The notes under the pieces were generated by a model that did no database searches, had not been told where the DNA came from, and saw only the letters and a program-made list of their open reading frames with translations. Shown here one piece after another: positions 2,418 through 54,529 of a DNA stretch of 64,000 nt. This stretch comes from Pseudomonadota bacterium (lineage in GTDB: Bacteria > Pseudomonadota > Alphaproteobacteria > Sphingomonadales > Sphingomonadaceae), in contig JAXHVK010000001.1 in NCBI GenBank assembly GCA_034211135.1, forward strand, positions 9,675 to 73,674, in the 5' to 3' direction. Position 1 is the first letter of the stretch. The number at the start of each line of letters is the position of its first letter. A program made the translations under genes and the position numbers.

Positions 2418-3689
2418 TTAGCCGTTTGACTGCGCCTCCCGCGCCACTTCTTTCCAGCCGATATCGCTGCGGTAAAATCCGGTGGGGAAGTCCACTTTCG
2501 CGACCGCTCCATAGGCCGCCGCCTGCGCTTCAGTCACATTCGCGCCGCTGGCGGTTACGTTGAGAACGCGGCCTCCGTTGGAAGTGTAGGCCCCTGCGTG
2601 TCCGGCTGTGCCGGCATGGAAGACCTTTGCGCCGTCTTCACTTTCCAGCGTGCCCAAGTCGATTCTGCCGCCCTTTTCAGGCGTGCCTGGATAGCCGTTG
2701 GCGCACATAACCACGGTTAGCGCGGTGTCATCCGAGAATTCCGCTTCCACAGTGCCGAGTTCTCCCTTCGCGCAGGCCAGCATGATTTGCGCAAGATCGC
2801 TTTCCAGCCGCATCATCAGCACCTGGCACTCGGGATCGCCAAAGCGGCAGTTGTATTCGATCAGCTTTGGCCCGTCCGCCGTCAGCATCAGCCCCGCATA
2901 AAGCACGCCGGAATAGGGCATTCCCTCCGAGCGCATGGTATCGACGGTGGGGCGGATGATTTCATCGATCACACGGCTTTGCAGTTCTGTTGTCAGAACA
3001 GGGGCAGGCGAATAAGCACCCATGCCGCCGGTGTTGGGGCCGACATCGCCTTCGCCGACCTGCTTGTGATCCTGCGCAGTGCCAAAGGGCAGGATGCTTT
3101 CCCCATCAGTCAGGGCAAAGAAGCTGGCTTCTTCCCCTTTCAGGAATTCCTCGATCACGACCTCTGCGCCAACAACCTCGAACATGTTGGCGAGCGTTTC
3201 TTTCGCGCTTTCCAGCGTCTCGGCGATCACAACGCCTTTGCCACCCGCAAGCCCGTCTGCCTTCAGCACGTAGGGCGGCTTGAAGCCTGACAGGGCCGCC
3301 TGCGCGTCCTCCAGTGTTGCCGTGCGCACATAGGCGCCAGTGGGAATATCAGCCTGCTCGCACAGGTCTTTGGTAAAGCCCTTGGACCCTTCCAGTTGCG
3401 CCGCTTTGCCCGACGGGCCGAATACGGCGATGCCTTCGCCGCGAAGTGTATCGGCCAGACCATCGACCAGCGGAGCTTCCGGCCCGATCACAACCAGATC
3501 AATCGCTTGTGCCCTGCACATTTGCAGCACTGCCTTATGATCGTCGGCGTTCAGAGTGACCAATTCGGCCTCTTGAGCGATGCCGGGATTTCCGGGGGCA
3601 GCGATCAGTCGCGTTACGCTGGGGGATTGCGCCAGCTTCCACGCCAGCGCATGTTCGCGCCCTCCCGAACCCAACAGCAGGACTTTCAT
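2418..3689 (-). CDS. purD: Phosphoribosylamine--glycine ligase
   Basis: N-terminus [19 protein letters not shown], plus [18 protein letters not shown] and RFGDPECQ. Confidence 0.97.
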
Positions 3690-5172
3690 GGCGCGTTCCC
3701 CTTCTTCTCGCACGCAAAATCAGACGGATGGCCTCGTAGCGCGTGAGCGGCAGGGCGACAACGCCGAGCCGTTGACGATCAGCGCGATTTCCCAAGCCTT
3801 GAAGCGCACGGTTGAAGATCGCTTTGGCTATGTCCGCCTTCGCGGGGAGCTTTCGGGCGTCAAACGCGCTGCGTCCGGCCACATGTATTGCGCGCTGAAA
3901 GACGATAAGGCTGTGATGGACGGGGTAATGTGGCGCGGCAACGCACAGCGGCTGGCCTTCGCGCCCGAGGACGGGCTGGAGGTGATCGCGACCGGCAAGC
4001 TGACGACCTATCCGGGCCGTTCGAAATATCAGGTCGTGATCGACAGTCTTGAGATCGCGGGTGAGGGCGCTTTGCTCGCCCTGTTGGAGAAAACCCGCGC
4101 AAGGCTGGCGGAAGAAGGGCTGTTTGACGACCGGCGAAAGCGGCGTCTGCCGTTCCTTCCGCGCACCATTGGTGTGGTTACCTCACCAACCGGATCGGTT
4201 ATTCGCGATATCCTCCACCGGTTGGCGGACCGGTTTCCAAGTCATGTGGTTGTCTGGCCGGTTCTGGTCCAGGGGCAGGGCGCGGCAGAGCAGGTGGCGA
4301 ACGCGATACGCGGCTTTTCCGCCTTGGGGGCGGGCGGTCCGGTTGCGCGCCCCGATGTCGTGATCGTTGCGCGTGGCGGCGGATCAATCGAGGATTTGTG
4401 GAGCTTCAACGAAGAAATCGTAGTGCGCGCAATAGCCGAATGTTCCATTCCGGTTATTTCCGCCGTCGGGCACGAGACGGATATGACGCTGGCGGATTAC
4501 GCTGCTGACCGACGTGCGCCAACACCCACTGCGGCTGCGGAGATGGCAGTTCCGGTGCGCGTTGATCTGAATGCGACGCTCGCCGATTTCGCGGCCCGTC
4601 AGCGCCGCGCTGTGCACCGTCCGGTGGAATTGGGGCGCGAAAGGCTGGAGGCGCGTGTGCGCCGCATGCCGCGTCCCGAAGTGCTGTTGCAACCACAGGC
4701 GCAGCGGCTTGATGATCTATCCGAACGGCTGCGGCGCGGCCTCACTACGCGCGCAGGACAGGGGCGGGAGCAATTGGCAGGCGTGGCAGCGCGCCTTTCT
4801 CCCGCTATTCTCCATCGGGCCAGTCGCGATGCGGCGCAACGTTTGCAATCAGCCCGACTGGTGCCTGCACTGGTAGAGCGGCCTTTGGCGCAATCTCGTG
4901 ACAGGCTCGCAGCGCTTTCGCGTCTCGCGAGCCAGTTGCACCCTGAGAAGCCGCTGGAGCGGGGATATGCAATCGTCCGCGATGCTGCCGGTAAAGCTTT
5001 GACGAACCGTATGCAGGCAGCACAGGAAGCCACTTTGTCTCTGCAGTTCCGCGATGGTTCTCTTGGTGTCGCCGCAGCGGGCTCATCGCCGCCGCCTGCA
5101 CCGCCAGCGAAACCCCGGCGAAAGTCAAAGCCTACGCCTGCCACTGATGCGCAAGAAGATTTGTTCGGATAG
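3688..5172 (+). CDS. xseA: Exodeoxyribonuclease VII large subunit
   Basis: OB-fold N-terminus ([16 protein letters not shown]), [11 protein letters not shown] and GHETD, C-terminal LERGY; start at ATG 3688 inferred. Confidence 0.95.
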
Positions 5173-10106: not shown

Positions 10107-10969
10107 GCCAATGCGAAATCCAGACCTACATCGGCTGCAGGAGCGCTTTGGGTAAGACGCCCGACCGAGCAGTAATCGACCCCGCTCGCTGCCTTGTCCG
10201 CGATCGTATCCAGATTGATCCCGCCGCTTGCCTCTGTTGCAGCGCGGCCATCAATCATGGCGACAGCGGCGCGGAGCACGTCAGGGCTCATATTATCGAG
10301 CAACAGGTGATGGGCGCCCGCTTCGAGTGCGGGCTCGATCTGGTCCAGCCGGTCCACTTCGCAGATGATCGGCTTCACACCCGCTTCGGCTGCGCGGCGA
10401 ACGGCTTCGCCAACGCTTCCGGCGACAGCGACATGGTTGTCCTTGATCATCGCGGCATCCCACAGGCCCATCCGGTGGTTCTGCGCGCCGCCCTGTTTGG
10501 TCGCGTATTTCTCCAGCGCGCGCAGGCCTGGAAGAGTCTTGCGCGTATCAAGCAGAGTGCAGGTCGCACTGCCGACCCGCATGGCGGCGACGTAATCGCG
10601 GGTCATCGTGGCGATGCCGGAGAGGTGCTGGACGATGTTCAGCGCGCTGCGCTCCGCTGTAAGGAGTGCACGGGCATTGCCTTTCAACCGCATCAAATCG
10701 GTGCCGGGCGCGGCGCTATCGCCGTCGGCAATCAGCGTTTCGATCTCGACATCGGGATCCAGAGCGCGGAAAAACGCCTCTGCCAGCGGTAGGCCAGCGA
10801 CAATGATCGCGTCGCGGCTGTCCATTACCCCTGAAAACCGTGCATCCGCCGGAATAACGCTTTCAGAGGTGACATCCTTGCCGCCGCCCTCAAGCCCTGA
10901 GCCGAGGTCTTCGGCGAGCGTATCGCGGATGAAAGTGTCGAGGTCGAAGCCGGGCAGGGTAAAGGTCAT
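10103..10969 (-). CDS. nadC: Nicotinate-nucleotide diphosphorylase (carboxylating)
   Basis: ERSALN, DTRKTLPGLR, MIKDNH, LLDN and EASGG motifs. Confidence 0.96.
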   Translation of the reverse strand: MTFTLPGFDLDTFIRDTLAEDLGSGLEGGGKDVTSESVIPADARFSGVMDSRDAIIVAGLPLAEAFFRALDPDVEIETLIADGDSAAPGTDLMRLKGNARALLTAERSALNIVQHLSGIATMTRDYVAAMRVGSATCTLLDTRKTLPGLRALEKYATKQGGAQNHRMGLWDAAMIKDNHVAVAGSVGEAVRRAAEAGVKPIICEVDRLDQIEPALEAGAHHLLLDNMSPDVLRAAVAMIDGRAATEASGGINLDTIADKAASGVDYCSVGRLTQSAPAADVGLDFALA

Positions 10970-11080
10970 GCGCTACCCATATACGGACCGGCATTGTCTG
11001 CAAGCGCCACTGCGTGTCGGCGGTGATTGCTGCGCGTCTGGCGGGGTGCAAGGGCGCGTTATATGCCCTTGTGGACCCGA

Positions 11081-11887
11081 TCAGTGTACGAAACGGGCGA
11101 CGACATCGCGGTAAGACCGCGAGACTTTCACTTCCTGACCGCTATCAAGTACAAGGAAGCATTCACCATTGGTGTGCGGTTTCACCTGCCGCACCTGATC
11201 AAGATTGACGATGGTTGAGCGGTGCACGCGCTGGAACTTGCGCGGATCAAGGCGCCGTTCGAGGTCCTTCATCGTCTCTCGCAAAATCAGTGAGTTATCG
11301 GCGGTGCGGATACACATATAGTCGCCTGCAGCCTCGATATGTTCGATGGAGTCGACCTCAACGCGGAAGATCTGGCCGCGATCCTTCACATTGATCAGCT
11401 TTTCAAAGCGATCCGCACTGTCGCCCGTCTCGCCTTCGCTATCGCTGAATTCCGCTGCCCGGTCCGGCGCGACTTCTTCGAGCACTTCAAGCAACTGCTC
11501 GGCATCTTCGGTGGATTTCTTTTCCGCCAGACGCTGGCGCACGCGCTCAATCGTGTCAGCCAGCTTGTCTTCATCGACCGGCTTCATGAGATAATTCACG
11601 GCATTGGCTTCGAAAGCACGGATGGCGTGCTCTTCATAAGCAGTGACGAACACGAACAGGGGCGGTTCGATTTCCATCACGCCCTTGACCACGCTAAACC
11701 CGTCAAAACCGGGCATCTGGATGTCGAGAAAGACGAGATCAGGCTTGGCCGTCTTGATCTTGCGGATTGCTTCTCGCCCATTGGAGCATGTGTCGATCAC
11801 TTCGATGTCGTCAAACGGCTGCAGACGCAGTTGAAGACCTTGGATAGCGAGTTTTTCGTCGTCGACGAGGATTGTGCGGATGGTCAT
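11081..11887 (-). CDS. LytTR family response regulator
   Basis: Receiver domain (VDDE, FLDIQMP, FVTAY) plus LytTR domain (FQRVHRSTIVN). Confidence 0.92.
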   Translation of the reverse strand: MTIRTILVDDEKLAIQGLQLRLQPFDDIEVIDTCSNGREAIRKIKTAKPDLVFLDIQMPGFDGFSVVKGVMEIEPPLFVFVTAYEEHAIRAFEANAVNYLMKPVDEDKLADTIERVRQRLAEKKSTEDAEQLLEVLEEVAPDRAAEFSDSEGETGDSADRFEKLINVKDRGQIFRVEVDSIEHIEAAGDYMCIRTADNSLILRETMKDLERRLDPRKFQRVHRSTIVNLDQVRQVKPHTNGECFLVLDSGQEVKVSRSYRDVVARFVH

Positions 11888-15107: not shown

Positions 15108-16499
15108 TTACCGGTCGCGCAGCCGTTCAAGCTCTGCCCGCGCTTGCAGTGCAATATCCTGAGCACGGATCCAGTCCGGCGTTCCTCTCTCAAGGCCAGC
15201 CTCCGCCGCCTGTGCATTGCGCAGGGCCGACGGGTAGCTTCGGCTCATCACCTGCTGTTCTGCACTTGCGAGGCGCGCGCGCGCGATATCGCCCTGCGCG
15301 GCATAAACAACGCCAAGCTGATACCATGCAAACGGATTTAGCCTGTCGCGACCCACCGCTGCGCGCAGGACCTGCTCTGCCTCTTCAAAGTTTGCTTCGT
15401 CCTCCGTCGCGATCAGCGCATGGCCGAACATGGACGCGATCAGCGGGTGGTTGCGCGTGATCAGCGTCGCTCGCCGCAACGGCACAAGCGCATCTACCGG
15501 CCTGCCGGATTCCAGCAGCACTTGCCCCTTCAATTCAAGGTAATAGGGGTTGTCCGGATCGCGCGCGAGTAGGCTGTCCGATTCCGCCAGCGCTTTCTCT
15601 ATCTGCGCGTCTTTGTGATAGGCATAGGCCCGCGCATAGGTTGCAGACAGGCTGGTATCCGTCGCCGGGTAGAGCGAGAAAGTGCGCTGCGGTTCCGCAA
15701 TATACCCGTACAGCTTTGCGCGAACCCGCTCAAAGCGGGCTTGCAGCTCGCCATCGTCTGGTTTGGACCATGCCGGATCGCTTTGCAGCAATTCGCGCAG
15801 GGTAACGATACGATCGCCGGAAAGCGGGTGGGTTCTGCCATAGGCCGCCTCATCCGCTTGACTGTACCCGCGCCGGATCTCAAAACTGCGCAGGCGTTCG
15901 AAGAACTTGATCATGCCGCGCCCCGAAATCCCGGCACCTGACAAGTAACGGGCGCCTGCAAGATCCGTCGAGGCTTCCTGATTGCGGTTGAAGCTGAGGA
16001 AATTGTTCACGCCCGCTTGCAAGCCCAGCCCCAGAGCGCCGAAGGCTGCTTCTGGCGGTGCACCCGCAAGCGCTGCGCCAACAGCGCCAAGCAGGGATAG
16101 CAATAGCGGCGCCTGCATTCCGGCAGTCCGCTCTTCAAACCGAATTACGTGACCGGCTGTAATATGGCCAAGTTCGTGAGCCAGCACGCCCTGGACTTCA
16201 TTTGCCGTTTCAGCCGCGTTGATCAGTCCTGTATGGATGTAGATGACCTGCCCGCCAGCGACGAAGGCGTTGATCGAGTTGTTGTTGATCAGGACGATCT
16301 CGACATTGCCGGGTTCGAGTTCGCTTGCCTCAACCAGAGGGTTGAGCATGTCCAGCAGCAGTTCTTCCGTCTCGGCGTCTCTGATCGGAGAAAGGCTCTG
16401 CGCCTGTGCTGCCGTTGACGTGAGTGTCAGAGACAGCGCGACAAGCAGCGAGACGGCATAGGCGGATAAGGTGCGGAGGAAGCGCATAGGTGATGCCAT
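15108..16499 (-). CDS. M48 family metalloprotease with TPR-like C-terminus (BepA-like)
   Basis: INAF, HELGH, QEASTD and THP motifs; start is ATG 16499 or 16487. Confidence 0.85.
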   Translation of the reverse strand: MASPMRFLRTLSAYAVSLLVALSLTLTSTAAQAQSLSPIRDAETEELLLDMLNPLVEASELEPGNVEIVLINNNSINAFVAGGQVIYIHTGLINAAETANEVQGVLAHELGHITAGHVIRFEERTAGMQAPLLLSLLGAVGAALAGAPPEAAFGALGLGLQAGVNNFLSFNRNQEASTDLAGARYLSGAGISGRGMIKFFERLRSFEIRRGYSQADEAAYGRTHPLSGDRIVTLRELLQSDPAWSKPDDGELQARFERVRAKLYGYIAEPQRTFSLYPATDTSLSATYARAYAYHKDAQIEKALAESDSLLARDPDNPYYLELKGQVLLESGRPVDALVPLRRATLITRNHPLIASMFGHALIATEDEANFEEAEQVLRAAVGRDRLNPFAWYQLGVVYAAQGDIARARLASAEQQVMSRSYPSALRNAQAAEAGLERGTPDWIRAQDIALQARAELERLRDR

Positions 16500-16530
16500 A
16501 GCGCGGTTGGGCCTGAACCGGAACTGAAAG

Positions 16531-17478
16531 CTATTGTACTTCGCTCGCCTGCGCCGTTTCGTTCTGTTTGGCCGGTTTGGCATTGCGAGCGAAATCGGCA
16601 ATGGTTTCCACGATATCGCGATTGCCGCGCCAAGGGGCTGCGATTGAAATGAGCGGATCATTATGCGTCATTTCGGGGTAGGTTTTCAGCGTCGCAGCGC
16701 CGCCTGCTTCGTTGATTGCTGCAGCAAGCTTTTGCGAGTTGTGCACCCCGACAAGCGCGTCTTTCTCTCCGTGGATCAACAACATGGGCGGCGCATCGGC
16801 GCGGATATGGTTCAGCGGCTGGGTCGCTTCATCTGCGTCTGACGGGCCAAACGCGGCTTTGGTCGAATCGCTATCATAAGGGAAGAAATCATACGGGCCG
16901 GACAGGCCGATCACACCGGCAATGGCGTTCGCATCCTTGCCTAGCCGACCGAGCCACTGATGCTCCAGCGCCGTCATCACGACATTATAAGCGCCCGCAG
17001 AATGTCCGGCTATCGTGATGCGCGACGGATCGCCTCCATATTGTTCGATGTCGTCCCGGACAATCGCAATGGCTTGGGCGGTATCTTCGAGCATGGCGGG
17101 ATAGACCCCGTCAGGCGTACCGTCTTTGACAAGACGATAGCCGACCAGGGCGACGACGAACCCTTCTGGCACAAATGCGCGACTAATAAATCCATAATCA
17201 ATCGGGTCGCCTGATCGCCAACTGCCACCATGAACAAAAACGAGCACAGGCAAGGGCGGATCATTCGGATTGCGGTCTTCAGGCCCCCAGATGATCAGTT
17301 TTTCAGACGGGTGCTCCCCTGTCGAAATCGTTGCGCGCAAGGCGGCCCCGCCAGAACCTCCGGTGAGCCTATCTACGCCGCTCAAAACAGCAGGCCCGTT
17401 GCGTGATATCGCGATTTGCAGCGCGATGCCGCCGACAATCAGGATGAGGACAAGTGCGCCCAGCGCCCAAAGAAACAT
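16531..17478 (-). CDS. Alpha/beta hydrolase (carboxylesterase-like)
   Basis: HGGSW oxyanion motif, GHSAG nucleophile, HGEKD and a C-terminal His. Confidence 0.88.
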   Translation of the reverse strand: MFLWALGALVLILIVGGIALQIAISRNGPAVLSGVDRLTGGSGGAALRATISTGEHPSEKLIIWGPEDRNPNDPPLPVLVFVHGGSWRSGDPIDYGFISRAFVPEGFVVALVGYRLVKDGTPDGVYPAMLEDTAQAIAIVRDDIEQYGGDPSRITIAGHSAGAYNVVMTALEHQWLGRLGKDANAIAGVIGLSGPYDFFPYDSDSTKAAFGPSDADEATQPLNHIRADAPPMLLIHGEKDALVGVHNSQKLAAAINEAGGAATLKTYPEMTHNDPLISIAAPWRGNRDIVETIADFARNAKPAKQNETAQASEVQ

Positions 17479-48517: not shown

Positions 48518-49201
48518 TCATCGCTGATCCCCGGTTCCATGTGGCGGGAATAGGCTGTCCGAAGCTCCGGATGTGTGCGGAGGATAAGCATCGGCGCCGC
48601 TGCCTGGGTGCGTTTCGTCAGCAGCCGTCTGCCGATCAGTATGTGCGGCGAATAGCGGCGCTGTGCGCCAGTCCACGGTCAGAAACGCACTCTGTTCATG
48701 CCGTTCCGCTGCAACCGATGCGCCGATGAGCGGCGCCAGCGCCGCAACATAATCGCGGGTTTCTCTGGGTAGCTGGCGACCTGTGGCTAGATGCTCGGCA
48801 TAGCGTGTCGGTCCCGCATTGTAGGCGGCGAGGAAGCCCGGCGATCCGAAGCGGTCATGCAGTTCACGGAGATAAGCGGCGCCCGCCAGAATGTTGTCGC
48901 GAGGATCGAACGGATCGCGCCCCAGACCGTAACGCGCGCGCAGCTCATCCCAGGTGTCGGGCATGATCTGCATCAGCCCCATCGCGCCTTTTTCGCTGAC
49001 GGCGCGCACGTCGCCGGCGCTTTCCTCGCGCATAACGGCGAGGATCCCATGCGCGGGGACGCCGAAGCGCTGCGCAGCTTCGGCGATAAAGGCAGCATAG
49101 GAATTGCCGCCTTGTTCCGTCCTGGAGGATGCGGTTTCTGCTGATACGGCGTGAGAGACAACCACGCCGGAGAGCAGACCGCAGAGGAGGAACTTCGCCA
49201 T
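48518..49201 (-). CDS. Lytic transglycosylase
   Basis: ES...GAMGLMQIMP and AAYNAGP. Confidence 0.9.
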   Translation of the reverse strand: MAKFLLCGLLSGVVVSHAVSAETASSRTEQGGNSYAAFIAEAAQRFGVPAHGILAVMREESAGDVRAVSEKGAMGLMQIMPDTWDELRARYGLGRDPFDPRDNILAGAAYLRELHDRFGSPGFLAAYNAGPTRYAEHLATGRQLPRETRDYVAALAPLIGASVAAERHEQSAFLTVDWRTAPLFAAHTDRQTAADETHPGSGADAYPPHTSGASDSLFPPHGTGDQR

Positions 49202-49223
49202 AATCGCGCAGCGCCGAGACGGT

Positions 49224-49571
49224 CTAGCCGCGCTCATCGCGTTTCTCGGGGCGCTTTGCAGGGCGGTTCCAATAGAGCGCCCAATTTCCGTCCTCGGCGT
49301 CGGTCTTGAAGAGATTGGCGCGGATCGGAAACGCAAAGGTCGGGTCGTCGATCTGCAAAGAGATGTATTCACCGGCTTTCTCGCCGGTGCGTTTCCAGCC
49401 GGCGCCGATTTCCGGCCCGTCATCATCGCCGTGATGGACGCGATAGTCGGGTGCGTTCTCGCTGTCTGACGGTGTTGCCGGAACGAGGGTGATTTCACGG
49501 TAGAGAATGAGCGTGTGAAGCCGACCGGTGAAGCCGGTTTCTGTGCGCGTGAATTGACCGATCTGAGCCAT
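49224..49571 (-). CDS. DUF736 domain protein
   Basis: APDYRV...IGAGWKR...YISLQIDDP. Confidence 0.88.
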   Translation of the reverse strand: MAQIGQFTRTETGFTGRLHTLILYREITLVPATPSDSENAPDYRVHHGDDDGPEIGAGWKRTGEKAGEYISLQIDDPTFAFPIRANLFKTDAEDGNWALYWNRPAKRPEKRDERG

Positions 49572-49584
49572 GGGGAAGTTCCTT

Positions 49585-50163
49585 TCATTTGCGGTCGGAA
49601 GATTTTTGGGAGGCCCCGGCGTCGCGATCGGCGCGCCAGACATACCGGCCGTCGCCGTCTTCATCGGTGAGGATCGGAACGGCGCGTCCGATCACGGCGT
49701 CCGCCGGGAGCGCGCCGAAATAGCGACCATCGAGACTGTCGGGATGGCTGGGATTCAGGAGGAAGAGCTCTGTTCTGGCGACGATGTGGCAGCCCTGCCA
49801 AACGGGCAGGTCGCGTCCGAAGCGGTCGCTCGGCCTAGCCTGCGCCAGGGTGATGTCGTCGACAGTGACAGCGGCGCCATCGCGGCAGACACGCTGTCCT
49901 GGAAGCGCAGCGATATGCTTGAGGAGCGGCACGCCTTCAGGCAGATAGCCGCGCTCGTCGAGATAGATCGCAAGCGATTTCGGCGGATCGACGACGACCA
50001 GATCGCCTACGGCAAGATCGTCTTCCGACGCGACGGCGTAGAGTCCAATGGGCGCGCTCGCGGACGCGTTCCAGATCAGCTTTGGGCTCACATGGACGAA
50101 GGCCAGTCCGCCGATCGCGAGCACGGAGAAATAGGTCGTCATGACGTAGCCGAACCGGGTCAT
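49585..50163 (-). CDS. traF: TraF / S26 signal peptidase-like pilin maturase
   Basis: WNASASAPIGLY, LLKHIAALPG and SLDGRYFG. Confidence 0.9.
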   Translation of the reverse strand: MTRFGYVMTTYFSVLAIGGLAFVHVSPKLIWNASASAPIGLYAVASEDDLAVGDLVVVDPPKSLAIYLDERGYLPEGVPLLKHIAALPGQRVCRDGAAVTVDDITLAQARPSDRFGRDLPVWQGCHIVARTELFLLNPSHPDSLDGRYFGALPADAVIGRAVPILTDEDGDGRYVWRADRDAGASQKSSDRK

Positions 50164-50666
50164 GACGCGCTCCCCGCCGATGTGGCGCGCTGTGTCTTTA
50201 GAGCGGGCGGACAAGTTTGGCGCAGGAGCCAGGCGCGATGCTGAACGGCTGTGTAGAAGCGCGGCTCCAAGCCTGCAGACAGCCTGTTGTGAACGTGGCG
50301 CCAATAGTCCGGCACGGCGTCAGCGGGGTCGATGTCGAGCGCTTCGATCGCATCGGCGAACTGAAGAACCCGTTCGACTTTGGGCCAGCCGGAGAGACGC
50401 AACAGACTGTCGCCGCCGGGTGTCACATGCGGCACGGTCGCATAGGGCTCACCTGCTCTGGGCGCGCGCAGGATGTCGATCCGGCTTTCCGCCGTACCGA
50501 AATCATTTGCCTGCCAGCGGACGAAGGCGAAGACGGCGCCGGGATCGAATGCGACGGTGCTGCGGCTACGGCTCTGGATCGTTGTCCGCACGATCCGGCC
50601 GAAGCGAATCCAGTGCTCGATCTGCTTCTCGATCCAGACGAGCTCGACAATGGCGCCGCCGCTCAT
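50160..50666 (-). CDS. DUF2840 domain protein
   Basis: VELVWIEKQIEHWIRFG and FVRWQANDFGT. Confidence 0.88.
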   Translation of the reverse strand: MSGGAIVELVWIEKQIEHWIRFGRIVRTTIQSRSRSTVAFDPGAVFAFVRWQANDFGTAESRIDILRAPRAGEPYATVPHVTPGGDSLLRLSGWPKVERVLQFADAIEALDIDPADAVPDYWRHVHNRLSAGLEPRFYTAVQHRAWLLRQTCPPALKTQRATSAGSAS

Positions 50667-50947
50667 GAGCGGGCCTTCCGTGCATAGGCGGGCGAGATCG
50701 CTGCATGCCGCTTGGCGGGCAGCACCTCGTCGCCCGTGTCGTCCGAGGTCGAGTTCTTCTCTCCCCGGCTAACCCAGGCTTGCAAATCCTCGATCGCGTA
50801 GACGACACGCCCGCCGATCTTCGAGTAGCGCGGTCCCGTGCCGTAGGTGCGATGTTTTTCGAGCGTCCGCCCCGAAAGGCCGAGAAAACGGGCCGCTTCA
50901 GGCGTTCGTAAATAGCGTGGGGGAAGTCCGGCATTGGGATCGGGCAT
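50663..50947 (-). CDS. rdfS: AlpA/MerR-like excisionase (RdfS homolog)
   Basis: YLRTPEAARFLGLSGRTLEKHRTYGTGP; first gene of the DUF2840-traF operon. Confidence 0.88.
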   Translation of the reverse strand: MPDPNAGLPPRYLRTPEAARFLGLSGRTLEKHRTYGTGPRYSKIGGRVVYAIEDLQAWVSRGEKNSTSDDTGDEVLPAKRHAAISPAYARKARS

Positions 50948-51034
50948 AGGTCGCGTCTCCGGTTAGGCCATCCCGCTGCGGGAAGCGCGGGACTGTCGGA
51001 GACGAGAAAAGCGTAAGATGCGCGCCGGGAGGGA

Positions 51035-51062
51035 TGACGATCAGAGCGCGGCGAAAACGTCA
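51035..51062. promoter_or_regulatory. Candidate FseA-type activator box at the rdfS promoter
   Basis: TGACGA-N16-ACGTCA (5/6 inverted), about 90 bp upstream of the rdfS start. Confidence 0.45.
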
Positions 51063-51103
51063 CCCCCAAATGATCGGCGGTATCGGCGTTTCGTCAGGCT
51101 CGA

Positions 51104-51967
51104 TCAGAACGGAATTTCGTCGTCCAGATCCGCGACTGGTGTCTGACGGGAAGCTTCGATGCGCTCGATAAACGCAAGCGATGCGAGGACGCTGTCTATG
51201 ATGAATTGCGCTTCCGAGACGTCGAGGAGCTCATTGTCATGGGCGAAAGAGCGCTTGTTGCGCGCCTGGTTCAGACCGTCGAAGAGCTTGTGCTGAACGC
51301 GGAGTGTCGGCAGGGCGAACTCGCTGACGGCGCCTTCATCACGTAAGGCCTTGCCGTATGCGCCGAATATGGCGTCGAGCGGAGTCTTTGCATCGACGAC
51401 CTGGTCCCGCGATGCCAGCAGATCGCGGAAGCGTTTGACGCAATAGGTATGCACACGATCCAGTGCGACATCCGGTTTTTCCGCTACAAGATCGGCGGCG
51501 ATGGACGCACGTAGTTTGGGCAGCGTGGTGTCGCGCGAGAAGTCCTTGAACGCGTCGTCGAGGTTCAGCGTAGACGCATTTTCAAGCTCATTCGTGAACT
51601 GCTCAAGCCATGCTTTCAGGCGCTCTTCTTTCGCGGCGTCCGCATCCACATAGCCATCGAGACTGCAACGATACGCCCACAAGACGCGAAGAACCTGAGC
51701 GACGAGGCGCGGTTCAGCGACCTCGACAAAGCCTCTGAGTGTTTTGCCCTTGCTCGCGCCTTCGACCTGGAAGCGTTCTTGGAATATCTGGATGTCGAAA
51801 TTTTCCTCAAACCACTCGGCCATGGTTCGGTCGGAAAAGTCGAGAACGTAGCCGCCGCCACTATGAAATATCTGGTCAAAGACAGCTCGTTGCTGAGACG
51901 GCAGCCGGCGCGTGCGTCCGATAATCCTGGGAAGGTTGGAATCAAGGTCTTGCGAAGGCTGAGTCAT
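51104..51967 (-). CDS. Abortive infection family protein (AbiJ-like N-terminus, Abi_C-like C-terminus)
   Basis: GGYVLDFSDRT N-terminus; LDRVHTY and RNKRSFAHDN (RxxxxxxH, HEPN-like). Confidence 0.7.
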   Translation of the reverse strand: MTQPSQDLDSNLPRIIGRTRRLPSQQRAVFDQIFHSGGGYVLDFSDRTMAEWFEENFDIQIFQERFQVEGASKGKTLRGFVEVAEPRLVAQVLRVLWAYRCSLDGYVDADAAKEERLKAWLEQFTNELENASTLNLDDAFKDFSRDTTLPKLRASIAADLVAEKPDVALDRVHTYCVKRFRDLLASRDQVVDAKTPLDAIFGAYGKALRDEGAVSEFALPTLRVQHKLFDGLNQARNKRSFAHDNELLDVSEAQFIIDSVLASLAFIERIEASRQTPVADLDDEIPF

Positions 51968-52025
51968 CCGATGAACATACCGAAAACCTTCCGTGGCGCA
52001 CAGTCACTGTGAAGTATTGGCGGCC

Positions 52026-52740
52026 TCAGCGGCCTTTGCCCTGAAGAAGTTGGCGATAACCGCGATCGATCATCATCCGCCCGTAAGTGGCCAGCCGCGC
52101 AACCTGCGCCTTGAGCGAACTGGTCTTTCACGGTTCGGCGGCGACGCGATCAGCGCCGAAGAAGGCCGTGGCAATGGCACGATAGCTGGCGCCGCTCTGG
52201 CGTCCGTCGATCGTGCGGAGGGCGCGTTTCAGTCGCTCGCGCCGATGTGGCGTAATCGGCGGATCTGAGTCGCGCTCGATAAGTTGGCGATACAGTCTGT
52301 CAGCGGCAGCAAGCCGAACGGGCCAGGCGTCATCGAGAGGAAGCAGGAGACCTACAGGCCGATCATCGACCAGATTACCGACAAGATTGACGCCGTTCTC
52401 CAATCGCATCCACGACAGTCCGTCGTCGCCCGTTTCGCGATCTGTGATGCTGTCGGGAGGAATGGCGGCGGTCAGGCCGATGTCGGGCAGAGACGCGATC
52501 AGGTGAACCACTGCGGGTGCAGCGGAAGGCAGCCAGAAGACCGGGGCGCCAAGTGCGTTGAGCTCCGGGTCTACCGGGAAATCGCAACCCCCAATCGGCT
52601 GGAGCGCCGCCGCCCTCCTGCATCATGTCGTAGTCTTTGCGATAATGCGTGTTCCGCCGAAGGCACTCCCAGGCAAGCCCCGAGATGTCGAGCTGATCGA
52701 AATGATCATATTGGTGATCGTCGCGCCAGTCGGCCGGCAT
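52026..52740 (-). pseudogene. fseA: FseA-like activator (DUF6499 + DUF2285 joined by a +1 frameshift), with a premature stop at 52128-52130
   Basis: AWECLRRN...WGLRF, then after the +1 shift PVDP...LRTIDG...ASYRAIA, then TGA, then in-frame KTSSL...GYRQLL. Confidence 0.8.
52576..52596 (-). other. +1 programmed ribosomal frameshift site
   Basis: GAT.TGG.GGG.TTG.CGA.TTT.CCC matches the recalled msi172-msi171 consensus SRV.TGG.GGN.NTN.NNN.TTT.CSY at all but one position. Confidence 0.8.
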
Positions 52741-52869
52741 GGCGAACTTCTCCCAATCACACGCCGAAATGTTGGACGGCGTCAGCTAGTTGGGATGTTT
52801 CGCCGTAAATCGGCGGGTGCATAGTACGGGCACAAGCATCGTGCGATGCGTACAGTGCATCGCTACCGC

Positions 52870-53145
52870 CTATTCCAGGGGAAGACCGTTCCTGAGAATG
52901 TCCCGATATCCTTGTTCGGTCATCCAACGCGCGCGGGACAGGTGGCTGTCGTGCACACGGCGGGCCCGCTCCGGCTCCGCCCTCGCGTCGATGCCAAGCA
53001 AGACCGGCGACACCTCTTCCAGCGATGCTCCGGCGTCATTGGCGTCGAGAAGTCGCATGTAAAGCTTGAGGTGATCGCGATCATAGACGGTCACGGCCGC
53101 ATCGTTCGGCGGGGCATCTGCGATCGTAAGCGGGGTGGCGGGCAT
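52870..53145 (-). CDS. qseM: QseM-like antiactivator (stand-alone DUF2285), 91 aa
   Basis: YD..H...YMRLLDA...S..E....LGID...EPERAR....SHL.RA.WM...GY closely matches Mesorhizobium QseM as recalled. Confidence 0.85.
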   Translation of the reverse strand: MPATPLTIADAPPNDAAVTVYDRDHLKLYMRLLDANDAGASLEEVSPVLLGIDARAEPERARRVHDSHLSRARWMTEQGYRDILRNGLPLE

Positions 53146-53268
53146 CGGCGTCCTGGCGAGTGTGGCACAATTGTTAATGAACCGGAAACCATGACGCATG
53201 CAAGCGCCGGCCGGTTGAAATGCCACCGGTGCGACGACTGCGGTGCGCTTCGGTCGGCATGTCGTCCG

Positions 53269-53297
53269 CGTATTATAATACGTCGCATCAAAATACG
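53269..53297. promoter_or_regulatory. Tandem C-protein-type operators (OL/OR)
   Basis: Perfect palindrome CGTATTATAATACG (53269-53282) and degenerate copy CGCATCAAAATACG (53284-53297), offset by 15 bp. Confidence 0.7.
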
Positions 53298-53318
53298 CGA
53301 TCCGCATTTTACTTGCGG

Positions 53319-53537
53319 ATGGATATTCGTGACGTTTTTGGAAAGAATCTCAAGCACTACCGGATGAAAATCGGCATCAGCCAGGACGCGCTGGCGGCCA
53401 AAATGGGCGTTGATCGCGCCCATGTGAGTTCGATGGAGCGCGGCCAGCAGAACGTGACCATCATCACCCTTTGGCATGCGGCGCTCGCGCTTGACGTGAA
53501 GCCGGCTGCACTTCTCGACGATCAGGCTCAGGATTAG
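53319..53537 (+). CDS. qseC: XRE-family controller protein (QseC homolog)
   Basis: FGKNLKHYR...SQDALA...DRAHVSSMERGQQNVT; divergent from qseM; no Shine-Dalgarno sequence seen. Confidence 0.8.
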   Translation: MDIRDVFGKNLKHYRMKIGISQDALAAKMGVDRAHVSSMERGQQNVTIITLWHAALALDVKPAALLDDQAQD

Positions 53538-53578
53538 AATTAGAGGCGCCCCGCCCGCTGAGCGGGGCGCCGGAAGCG

Positions 53579-53911
53579 TCAGTCGCCGTTCTGGCGGCGG
53601 GACCGCGACCAGATGAGACTGAAGCTCTCTTCGCCCTCGATGACGGTGTCGTCGAAGAGGTTGGCGTAGATCGGCGCGGTGAAGCTTGGATCGTCGAGCT
53701 TGAGGCTCAGATAGTCGCGACCTTCGTTCGAGCGTTTGGACCAAGCGGCGCCGATTTCGACGCGGCCTACGAAGACGCGGTGCGAGGGAGCGTTGTCGTT
53801 AGATGACCCCTCTTCAGGGACGATGCGGACGTTCTTCGCCTGAACATTCAGGGTGACGATCTCGCCGACGAACTCGTTGCCGGTCTTCTTGAAGGTTCCG
53901 ATGGTGGCCAT
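53579..53911 (-). CDS. DUF736 domain protein (second paralog)
   Basis: MATIGTF...APSHRV...[10 protein letters not shown]...[11 protein letters not shown]. Confidence 0.9.
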
Positions 53912-54529
53912 GTCAGTTCTCCTTTTGGCTTTCGAGCCCGCGCCCATCGCGGCCTCGATGGCGATCGGCACGGCCGGGGCGACCGCCGACGCAGTCCTTG
54001 CGACCCGCAGCGCAAGCGGAGGACAGCGGAGACGGAGTTTCTTGTTCCGCGAGGAATGGGCGAAGCCCAGGGGACGAAAGTCCGGCTCCGCCGTTGCGGC
54101 CAAGGGGGTCGAGGCATCAGCCGATCCCGGCCAGATCAGTCCATGAGAGGCTGAGACGGGCGTGGGGGAGGTTCAGGAGACCTGTAGAAAGTCGCCTGCG
54201 AATACCGATAAACGCCGGCAATATGTTTTGAAGGGTGGTCGCCCGCATTGGGCCAAGAGAAGAATGACGTCATCCGGGAGAGGGCAGATCGACAAGGCTG
54301 TGACCTGTCGTCGTCCGACGCGGCGCCCGATCGGCCCCCGCTGCCAGCGCACGAATTCGGCCACAGGACTCTCTAGCGAACCCGGTGCACGCGCGGCCAA
54401 TTTCAGTCGATAAGCTGACAACTGGACGGAGCGGTTGGGAAAGGAGCTATGCGGACAAAACCGCCAACCGGACGGCACCAATGAATGTCCTCTTCGCGGC
54501 AAAATAGAATTTGTATCTGAGGCAACAAA

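Follow-up and report, generated by a model that had tools for sequence, protein, structure and literature searches.

The +1 frameshift that yields FseA of ICEMlSymR7A, an element of Mesorhizobium japonicum/loti, was reportedly described by Ramsay et al. in PNAS in 2015. [quoted passage not shown] The first-pass annotation of the locus examined here named the msi172-msi171 genes of ICEMlSymR7A as its precedent, and that case is indeed published: FseA is made by a +1 shift at UGGGGG...UUUC, where the codons specify 'WGL' (PMC4755241, PMC10359603). In the R7A system, tRNA-Phe slips from UUU to UUC at UUUC downstream of a G-rich element, with an efficiency of 4-13%, and UGGGGG encoding WGL has been described as a pause site that resembles a ribosome-binding site (PMC4755241, PMC10359603). 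The split gene gives approximately 0.8% of the promoter activation obtained with a fused gene, and only the fused product activates PrdfS. Curation of 4,709 FseA homologues has shown that about 61% are split at the conserved site, and these genes are often misannotated (PMC4755241, PMC10359603). We take the letters of the R7A site and the mass-spectrometry data second-hand from the same two publications (PMC4755241, PMC10359603).

According to the published account, RovC of Yersinia pseudotuberculosis activates a type VI secretion locus, not ICE excision, and lacks helix alpha-1. Its structure (PDB 6xz5) is the closest solved structure to the protein considered here and contains a DUF2285 extended-turn helix-turn-helix. 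The release factor 2 gene, prfB, is also decoded through a +1 programmed frameshift, in which a Shine-Dalgarno-like element lies 3 nt from the slippery codon.

Here, we examine two overlapping minus-strand ORFs (52740..52375 and 52511..52128) in a 64,000-nt stretch of DNA, hereafter the window. We conclude with high confidence that the ORFs form one gene, a homologue of fseA (msi172-msi171) that would require a +1 shift and is truncated in this copy. The first-pass annotation had proposed that +1 joining of the ORFs produces an FseA-like activator. Domain content, the motif and 40 related loci uphold the joining, but the product encoded here is a truncated protein of 203 aa rather than a full-length activator. 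The feature is the published FseA +1 frameshift in an ordinary member of a known family, and its differences from the R7A system are modest.

Organization of the split gene

The features of the locus are collected in Table 1. ORF1 carries a complete DUF6499 domain (PF20109, profile positions 1-60 of 60, residues 4-55, E = 7e-17), and the domain therefore ends at the shift site. ORF2, in the +1 frame, encodes a DUF2285/RovC_DNA-bd domain (PF10074). The GGAG core of the Shine-Dalgarno-like element upstream of ORF1 is kept in most related loci, and a sigma-70 promoter scan of positions 50900-53700 gave no matches.

Table 1. Coordinates of features at and around the split fseA gene of the window.
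Feature	Position	Strand	Remarks
qseC-like XRE helix-turn-helix gene, 72 aa, HTH_3	53319..53537	+	divergent from qseM
qseM-like gene, 91 aa, DUF2285 only (PF10074)	52870..53145	-	net charge -4, pI 5.3
Shine-Dalgarno-like GGGAGAA	52748..52754	-	7 nt 5' of the fseA ATG (52740)
fseA codons 1-54, 0 frame; DUF6499 with AWECLRRN (residues 23-30)	52579..52740	-	Pfam, alignment A3
Predicted +1 frameshift signal UGG GGG UUG CGA UUU C	52578..52593	-	sequence, conservation, literature
ORF1 0-frame continuation, 67 codons plus TAA	52375..52578	-	overlaps the +1-frame coding region
fseA codons 55-203, +1 frame; middle region and start of DUF2285 (profile 1-76 of 107)	52131..52577	-	
In-frame TGA at the invariant Trp204 codon	52128..52130	-	TGG in all relatives
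Last 33 codons of DUF2285 and normal stop TGA 52028..52026	52026..52127	-	cut off by the premature stop
FseA-box-like inverted repeat TGACGT-N16-TCGTCA	51035..51062	-	87 nt upstream of the rdfS ATG
rdfS-like excisionase gene (HTH_17)	50663..50947	-	first of rdfS-DUF2840-traF-SLT-relaxase

Positions 52596..52578 read GAT TGG GGG TTG CGA TTT C on the minus strand, with GAT at 52596-52594 (D49), TGG at 52593-52591 (W50), GGG at 52590-52588, TTG at 52587-52585, CGA at 52584-52582, TTT at 52581-52579 (F54) and the single C at 52578. This second reading reproduced exactly the coordinates, the assignment of the slip to codon 54 and the slip-site peptide given in the first-pass annotation. The signal comprises a Shine-Dalgarno-like G run, an invariant CGA, the slippery UUU and the skipped C. 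When C 52578 is skipped, translation continues as F-PVDPELNALGAPVFWLP and enters ORF 52511..52128; read with TTTC as a single step, the joined sequence is MPADW...DWGLRF-PVDPELNALGAPVFWLPSAAPAVVHLIAS..., in frame with the same ORF. The predicted junction peptide is FPVDPELNALGAPVFWLP..., and the predicted tryptic junction peptide is FPVDPELNALGAPVFWLPSAAPAVVHLIASLPDIGLTAAIPPDSITDR. The unshifted ORF1 product, starting at ATG 52740, is 121 aa long.

The slip-site motif is not a chance match. The 3.1-Mb genome contains a single copy of the pattern TGGGG[GC]YTRCGATTT[CT], located precisely where DUF6499 and DUF2285 meet. Of 401 genomes of the class, 2 contain a slightly longer version, GAYTGGGGNYTNCGATTTC, and none contains a reversed control pattern. 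In this genome, each of the G-L-R-F codons is a minority choice for its amino acid (GGG 0.15, TTG 0.12, CGA 0.07 and TTT 0.33), and CGA, presumably decoded by the single tRNA-Arg(ACG) found, may contribute to the slip, as the G run may contribute to the pause. The A-site codon of the 0 frame, CCC, is not rare: among Pro codons its share is 27%, and the genome has a tRNA-Pro(GGG) gene, and therefore a hungry codon or a stop cannot account for the pause. A search for a downstream stimulatory RNA structure found none, the alifold energy being -4.6 kcal/mol with trivial pairs and the single-sequence z-scores ranging from -0.2 to -1.0. The signal thus appears to be a linear motif alone.

The site resembles that of prfB in that a P-site tRNA would slip by +1 onto an overlapping cognate codon downstream of a Shine-Dalgarno-like, G-rich element. 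However, the A site here holds CCC rather than an in-frame stop, the slippery sequence is UUU-C instead of CUU-U, and the shift limits an activator, whereas the prfB shift autoregulates release factor. Because the G run is 6 nt from the slippery codon, compared to 3 nt in prfB, the analogy is a loose one. The short homopolymer runs at the site (GGGGG, TTT and CCC) could also invite transcriptional slippage, in which the G5, T3 or C3 run would lose a base in the mRNA without any part played by the ribosome. Productive transcriptional slippage occurs at runs of about 7 or more identical bases, however, and the runs here are 3-5 bases long. Moreover, the invariant CGA and the exact UUU-C layout suit re-pairing of a tRNA, and the R7A site is described as ribosomal. 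We find slippage of the polymerase scarcely plausible and retain ribosomal frameshifting as the explanation.

Conservation of the +1 arrangement in related loci

A scan of one genome per species recovered 42 related loci, which belong to Hyphomonas, Henriciella, Maricaulis, Oceanicaulis, Roseibium, Roseitalea, Sulfitobacter, Inquilinus and other genera. Conservation of the motif across homologs, which the first-pass annotation had proposed as a check, was found throughout: all 40 genome loci that span the junction have the +1 arrangement at the identical motif. The offset at the motif is exactly +1 in 38 of them (L009-L038 and L040-L047) and in 3 metagenome contigs, and the other two, L039 and L048, have WxLRF in frame x and PVDP in frame x+1. 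A search with blastn in distant mode for annotated plasmid relatives returned no match.

The codons of the site are constrained at synonymous positions. A comparison of 30 distinct sequences showed CGA at codon 53 and TTT at codon 54 without exception; 29 of the 30 have GGG at codon 51, and 29 retain the skipped C. Other invariant residues use their codons freely; R29 is encoded by CGG, CGC, CGA or CGT, and P58 by CCG, CCA or CCC. The frame in which third positions vary changes from 0 to +1 precisely between codons 54 and 55. Conservation of the trans-frame protein continues through the junction, with W50, G51, L52, R53, F54, P58, W69, A74 and A76 invariant in the alignment, and AWECLRRN is invariant in 24 relatives. 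The 0-frame tail that follows TTT varies from 3 to 114 codons among relatives and shows no conservation.

These data bear on whether the ORFs could instead be expressed without a frameshift, as a DUF6499 protein and a separate DUF2285 protein initiated at GTG 52511 that act apart or as a non-covalent pair. This GTG does exist, and gene callers use it for 161-aa proteins, but only 12 of 32 distinct relatives have a start codon at this point. No +1-frame start position is conserved among the loci, and 2 relatives have no +1-frame start at all before codon 100 of the fused frame. Within the window, there is no +1-frame start codon between the upstream stop and GTG 52511, and no Shine-Dalgarno sequence precedes the GTG. 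The 22 codons on its 5' side are conserved as protein in the +1 frame, with free third positions. Separate proteins would also leave the synonymous invariance of GGG-xxx-CGA-UUU-C without explanation, and they do not fit the R7A precedent, in which PrdfS responds to the fused product only. Initiation at GTG 52511, the alternative that the first-pass annotation had put forward, is thus unsupported, and we consider a two-protein arrangement very improbable. One gene joined by a +1 shift remains our interpretation, under which a trans-frame product would be made here at low frequency.

The split could also be a disabling frameshift mutation or a sequencing indel, with a pseudogene at the junction. 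The long-read assembly of L048 has an additional frame change upstream in ORF1, which speaks for this explanation. However, the same offset and motif recur in 40 loci, drawn from isolates and MAGs of many genera, and in 3 independent metagenome contigs, and both halves of the gene are still under protein-level constraint. The conservation data exclude a disabling indel, and we give this explanation practically no weight beside a programmed +1 shift.

Two loci depart from the common arrangement. In L048 (a long-read MAG, positions 3000-3760), AWECLRRN lies one frame off WGLRF, in addition to the normal +1 junction; either an additional indel or a sequencing error would produce this change. We considered L048 as a single-frame relative and rejected it, because the extra frame change is inside ORF1 and the +1 junction is retained. 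The second, L052 (positions 200-330 of an ENA contig with 1.5x coverage), has lost 58 nt between GCGCTCC direct repeats when compared with L017 (3100-3290). The frameshift site is lost entirely with this segment, and the DUF6499 and DUF2285 domains become joined in frame in a 218-aa protein (P0004). L052 would be either a natural fseA without its brake or an artefact of low-coverage assembly.

Genetic neighborhood and structural model

The genes of the module are arranged in the order qseC-like, qseM-like, fseA, Abi_C, rdfS, DUF2840, S26 peptidase (traF), SLT, DUF3363 relaxase, traG and trbB-trbI. Backbone genes match HTH_17, DUF2840, Peptidase_S26, SLT, DUF3363, T4SS-DNA_transf, T2SSE, VirB3, VirB4-like, TrbL, VirB8, CagX and TrbI domains, and ParB-like, Toprim and DUF736 genes lie upstream of the qseC-like gene. 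By this gene content, the neighborhood belongs to an integrative conjugative element of the ICEMlSymR7A type and forms its control and transfer module.

The locus shares with the R7A system an FseA with an N-terminal DUF6499 domain containing an AWE(F/C)LRRN helix and a C-terminal DUF2285 domain, encoded in two ORFs that differ by a +1 offset, where UGGGGG at 'WGL' precedes slippery UUU-C. An adjacent acidic, DUF2285-only QseM-like protein, a QseC-like XRE regulator and the rdfS-traF-SLT-relaxase-trb backbone are likewise common to both, as is a hexamer-N16-hexamer inverted repeat upstream of rdfS. In its hexamer-16 bp-hexamer geometry, the repeat resembles the published FseA box, in which inverted hexamers separated by 15-16 bp adjoin the rdfS promoter (PMC10359603). 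It is kept in 35 of 35 rdfS upstream regions, with a variable spacer. The net charge of the QseM-like protein (-4) contrasts with that of the strongly basic DUF2285 part encoded by the split gene (+12), in agreement with the published difference between QseM and FseA.

In contrast to R7A, the window has no traR, traI or tra-box operon upstream, and fseA lies downstream of qseM on the same strand. Among the scanned ORFs from the ICE portion of the window, none gave a LuxR or LuxI domain (traR/traI). In the genome as a whole, a single Autoind_bind gene lies on another contig and LuxI gave no match, in an assembly that is 92% complete and in which the control search was silent as well. The missing traR and traI in the window indicate that the upstream signal differs from that of R7A; quorum-sensing input is a feature of R7A and does not define the FseA family. 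Other differences are of distance and size. Here, rdfS lies about 1.8 kb downstream of fseA with an Abi_C gene between them, the intact form of FseA would have 237 aa compared to 266 aa in R7A, and the inverted repeat is farther from the rdfS ATG (Table 1) than the 62-67 nt quoted for the alphaproteobacterial logo.

The 161-aa ORF2 protein recovered by the homology search (P0005) was modelled, and its DUF2285 part is confident (pLDDT 84-92). Foldseek with this model returned RovC (6xz5) as the top fold match (E = 6.8e-4, probability 1.00, identity of approximately 18%) and the NMR structure of QseM as the third; the profile match to RovC has an E-value of 2.5e-5.

Several further observations concern the surroundings of the gene. 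A dyad, GCGATGC-N7-GCATCGC, lies between the qseM stop and the fseA start (52843-52863, minus strand). Its GATGC...GCATC core is kept in nearly all of about 30 related loci and its center varies; one flanking pair co-varies (C/G here and T/A in L011), and no T-run follows. The dyad is a candidate operator or hairpin that might control fseA expression. The locus is also a mosaic when compared with L006, L007 and L009 over positions 49027-54456. Only 2 differences separate the control module (51400-54456; DUF736, qseC, qseM, fseA and most of Abi_C) from these loci, whereas the region from about 51300 down to 49027 (rdfS, DUF2840, traF and SLT) is approximately 13% divergent, and homology ends at 54456. 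Such a pattern implies recombination, with one breakpoint in the 3' end of Abi_C and another upstream of DUF736. The spacing between fseA and rdfS falls into classes, with rdfS starting at about 3977, 4331, 4520, 4794 or above 5100 in locus coordinates, and Abi_C (51104-51967 in the window) accordingly resembles variable cargo placed between the activator and the promoter that it targets; it is apparently absent from copies of the Henriciella/Oceanicaulis type.

The same genome contains two further, distant FseA-like genes with 31-33% identity, at about 15700-16900 of one contig (G000:C23, L004) and at 10752-11336 of another (G000:C84, L003). The first is a single continuous frame with both domains and no frameshift, has FGMQFMPDP in place of WGLRFPVDP, and is followed by an HTH_17 excisionase-like ORF. 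The second is given without internal stops.

A premature stop codon at Trp204

As encoded here, the joined frame gives 203 aa and ends at TGA 52130..52128, whereas the intact length is 237 aa. The DUF2285 domain is left incomplete (profile 1-76 of 107, 63 bits); with the TGA read as Trp, the match extends over the entire profile (1-107 of 107, 108 bits). Trp204 is invariant in alignments A2, A3 and A5, and its codon is TGG in 41 of 41 other loci. The 33 codons that follow the TGA are intact and differ from their counterparts in relatives only by a single synonymous change, in L006.

In the structural model, this Trp comes after a short helix, H2b, and before the final long helix (residues 132-157 of the 161-aa protein). 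By position and conservation, it matches Trp235 of R7A FseA, which is located at the end of H2b. The W235A substitution abolishes activation in R7A, and R247/R248 in H3 are required for DNA binding. The TGA means that the frameshift product would lack both the Trp and the C-terminal helices after it. This copy of FseA is therefore probably inactive, unless the TGA is a variant of the assembly. By its sequence the gene is a member of the FseA family by descent, truncated in this copy.

Rather than a fixed mutation, the TGA may be a variant of the consensus or of the population in this 277-contig assembly. If it were an assembly or minority-variant artefact, the true element would carry TGG, and the +1 shift would produce a normal, active FseA of 237 aa. 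The genome is fragmented and 92% complete, the remaining ICE genes appear intact, and TGG is found in three near-identical JGI marine metagenome contigs (L006-L008), one of which, L008, differs from the window by this single base in 1,456 nt. However, substitution errors are uncommon in consensus contigs, the base is not marked as ambiguous in the sequence, and TGG to TGA is a simple transition. Pseudogenization of ICE transfer regulators has also been documented (PMC8627217). We regard an artefact as rather unlikely and favor a genuine truncation of this copy.

We also weighed a double recoding, in which, after the +1 shift, a near-cognate tRNA-Trp would read through UGA-A at codon 204, so that traces of full-length FseA would be made under a second brake. 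Readthrough by tRNA-Trp would restore exactly the conserved residue, and the codons after the TGA are intact. A recent mutation accounts equally well for these codons, however. Among more than 40 loci and 120 protein relatives the TGA is present in this assembly only, which argues that it is not selected. No suppressor or Sec tRNA(UCA) gene turned up among 37 tRNAs of the genome, there is no indication of an alternative genetic code, and TGA, at 53% of stops, is the normal stop codon used most often. The restriction of the TGA to one assembly and the negative search for a suppressor tRNA gene make programmed readthrough unlikely, and we consider double recoding extremely doubtful compared to simple truncation. 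If it did occur, excision of the ICE would be throttled by orders of magnitude beyond that of relatives, but not abolished. A 'TGA inside' flag on L004, one of the two distant copies in the genome, was discarded because it marks the normal stop of that gene.

Discussion

The data suggest the following course of expression, in which initiation and truncation are read from the sequence, and the steps between them draw on conservation and on the published R7A work. Translation would start at ATG 52740 and proceed through the DUF6499 domain. At UGG-GGG-UUG-CGA-UUU-C, the majority of ribosomes would remain in frame and complete the 121-aa protein, which contains DUF6499 only. In a minority (4-13% in the R7A system), peptidyl-tRNA-Phe would re-pair from UUU to UUC, probably aided by the Shine-Dalgarno-like GGGGG located 6 nt upstream and by the invariant, rare CGA in the E site. 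Shifted ribosomes would skip C 52578 and enter the +1 frame to translate the middle and DUF2285 domains. The shift would keep the activator scarce, and the adjacent acidic QseM-like protein could bind the DUF6499 part as an anti-activator. With the stop at TGA 52130..52128, the joined product would most likely be unable to activate the FseA box at 51062..51035.

The importance of the locus is mainly for annotation. The first-pass annotation had warned that automated calling would treat the ORFs as two unrelated genes, and the JGI calls on the near-identical contigs L006 and L007 go further: of the two halves, they include only the 161-aa DUF2285 ORF, begun at a false GTG, and assign no gene to the DUF6499 half. 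Because callers miss this half and misplace the start of the other, the master switch of a 57-kb ICE goes unrecognized. The locus adds one more marine alphaproteobacterial case to a family for which the frameshift has been established before, and the constraint on the GGG, CGA and UUU-C codons is shown across many genera. The stop at codon 204 is an ordinary loss of function and is relevant only to judging the mobility of the element; this strain-specific change suggests that the ICE copy can no longer switch on its own excision.
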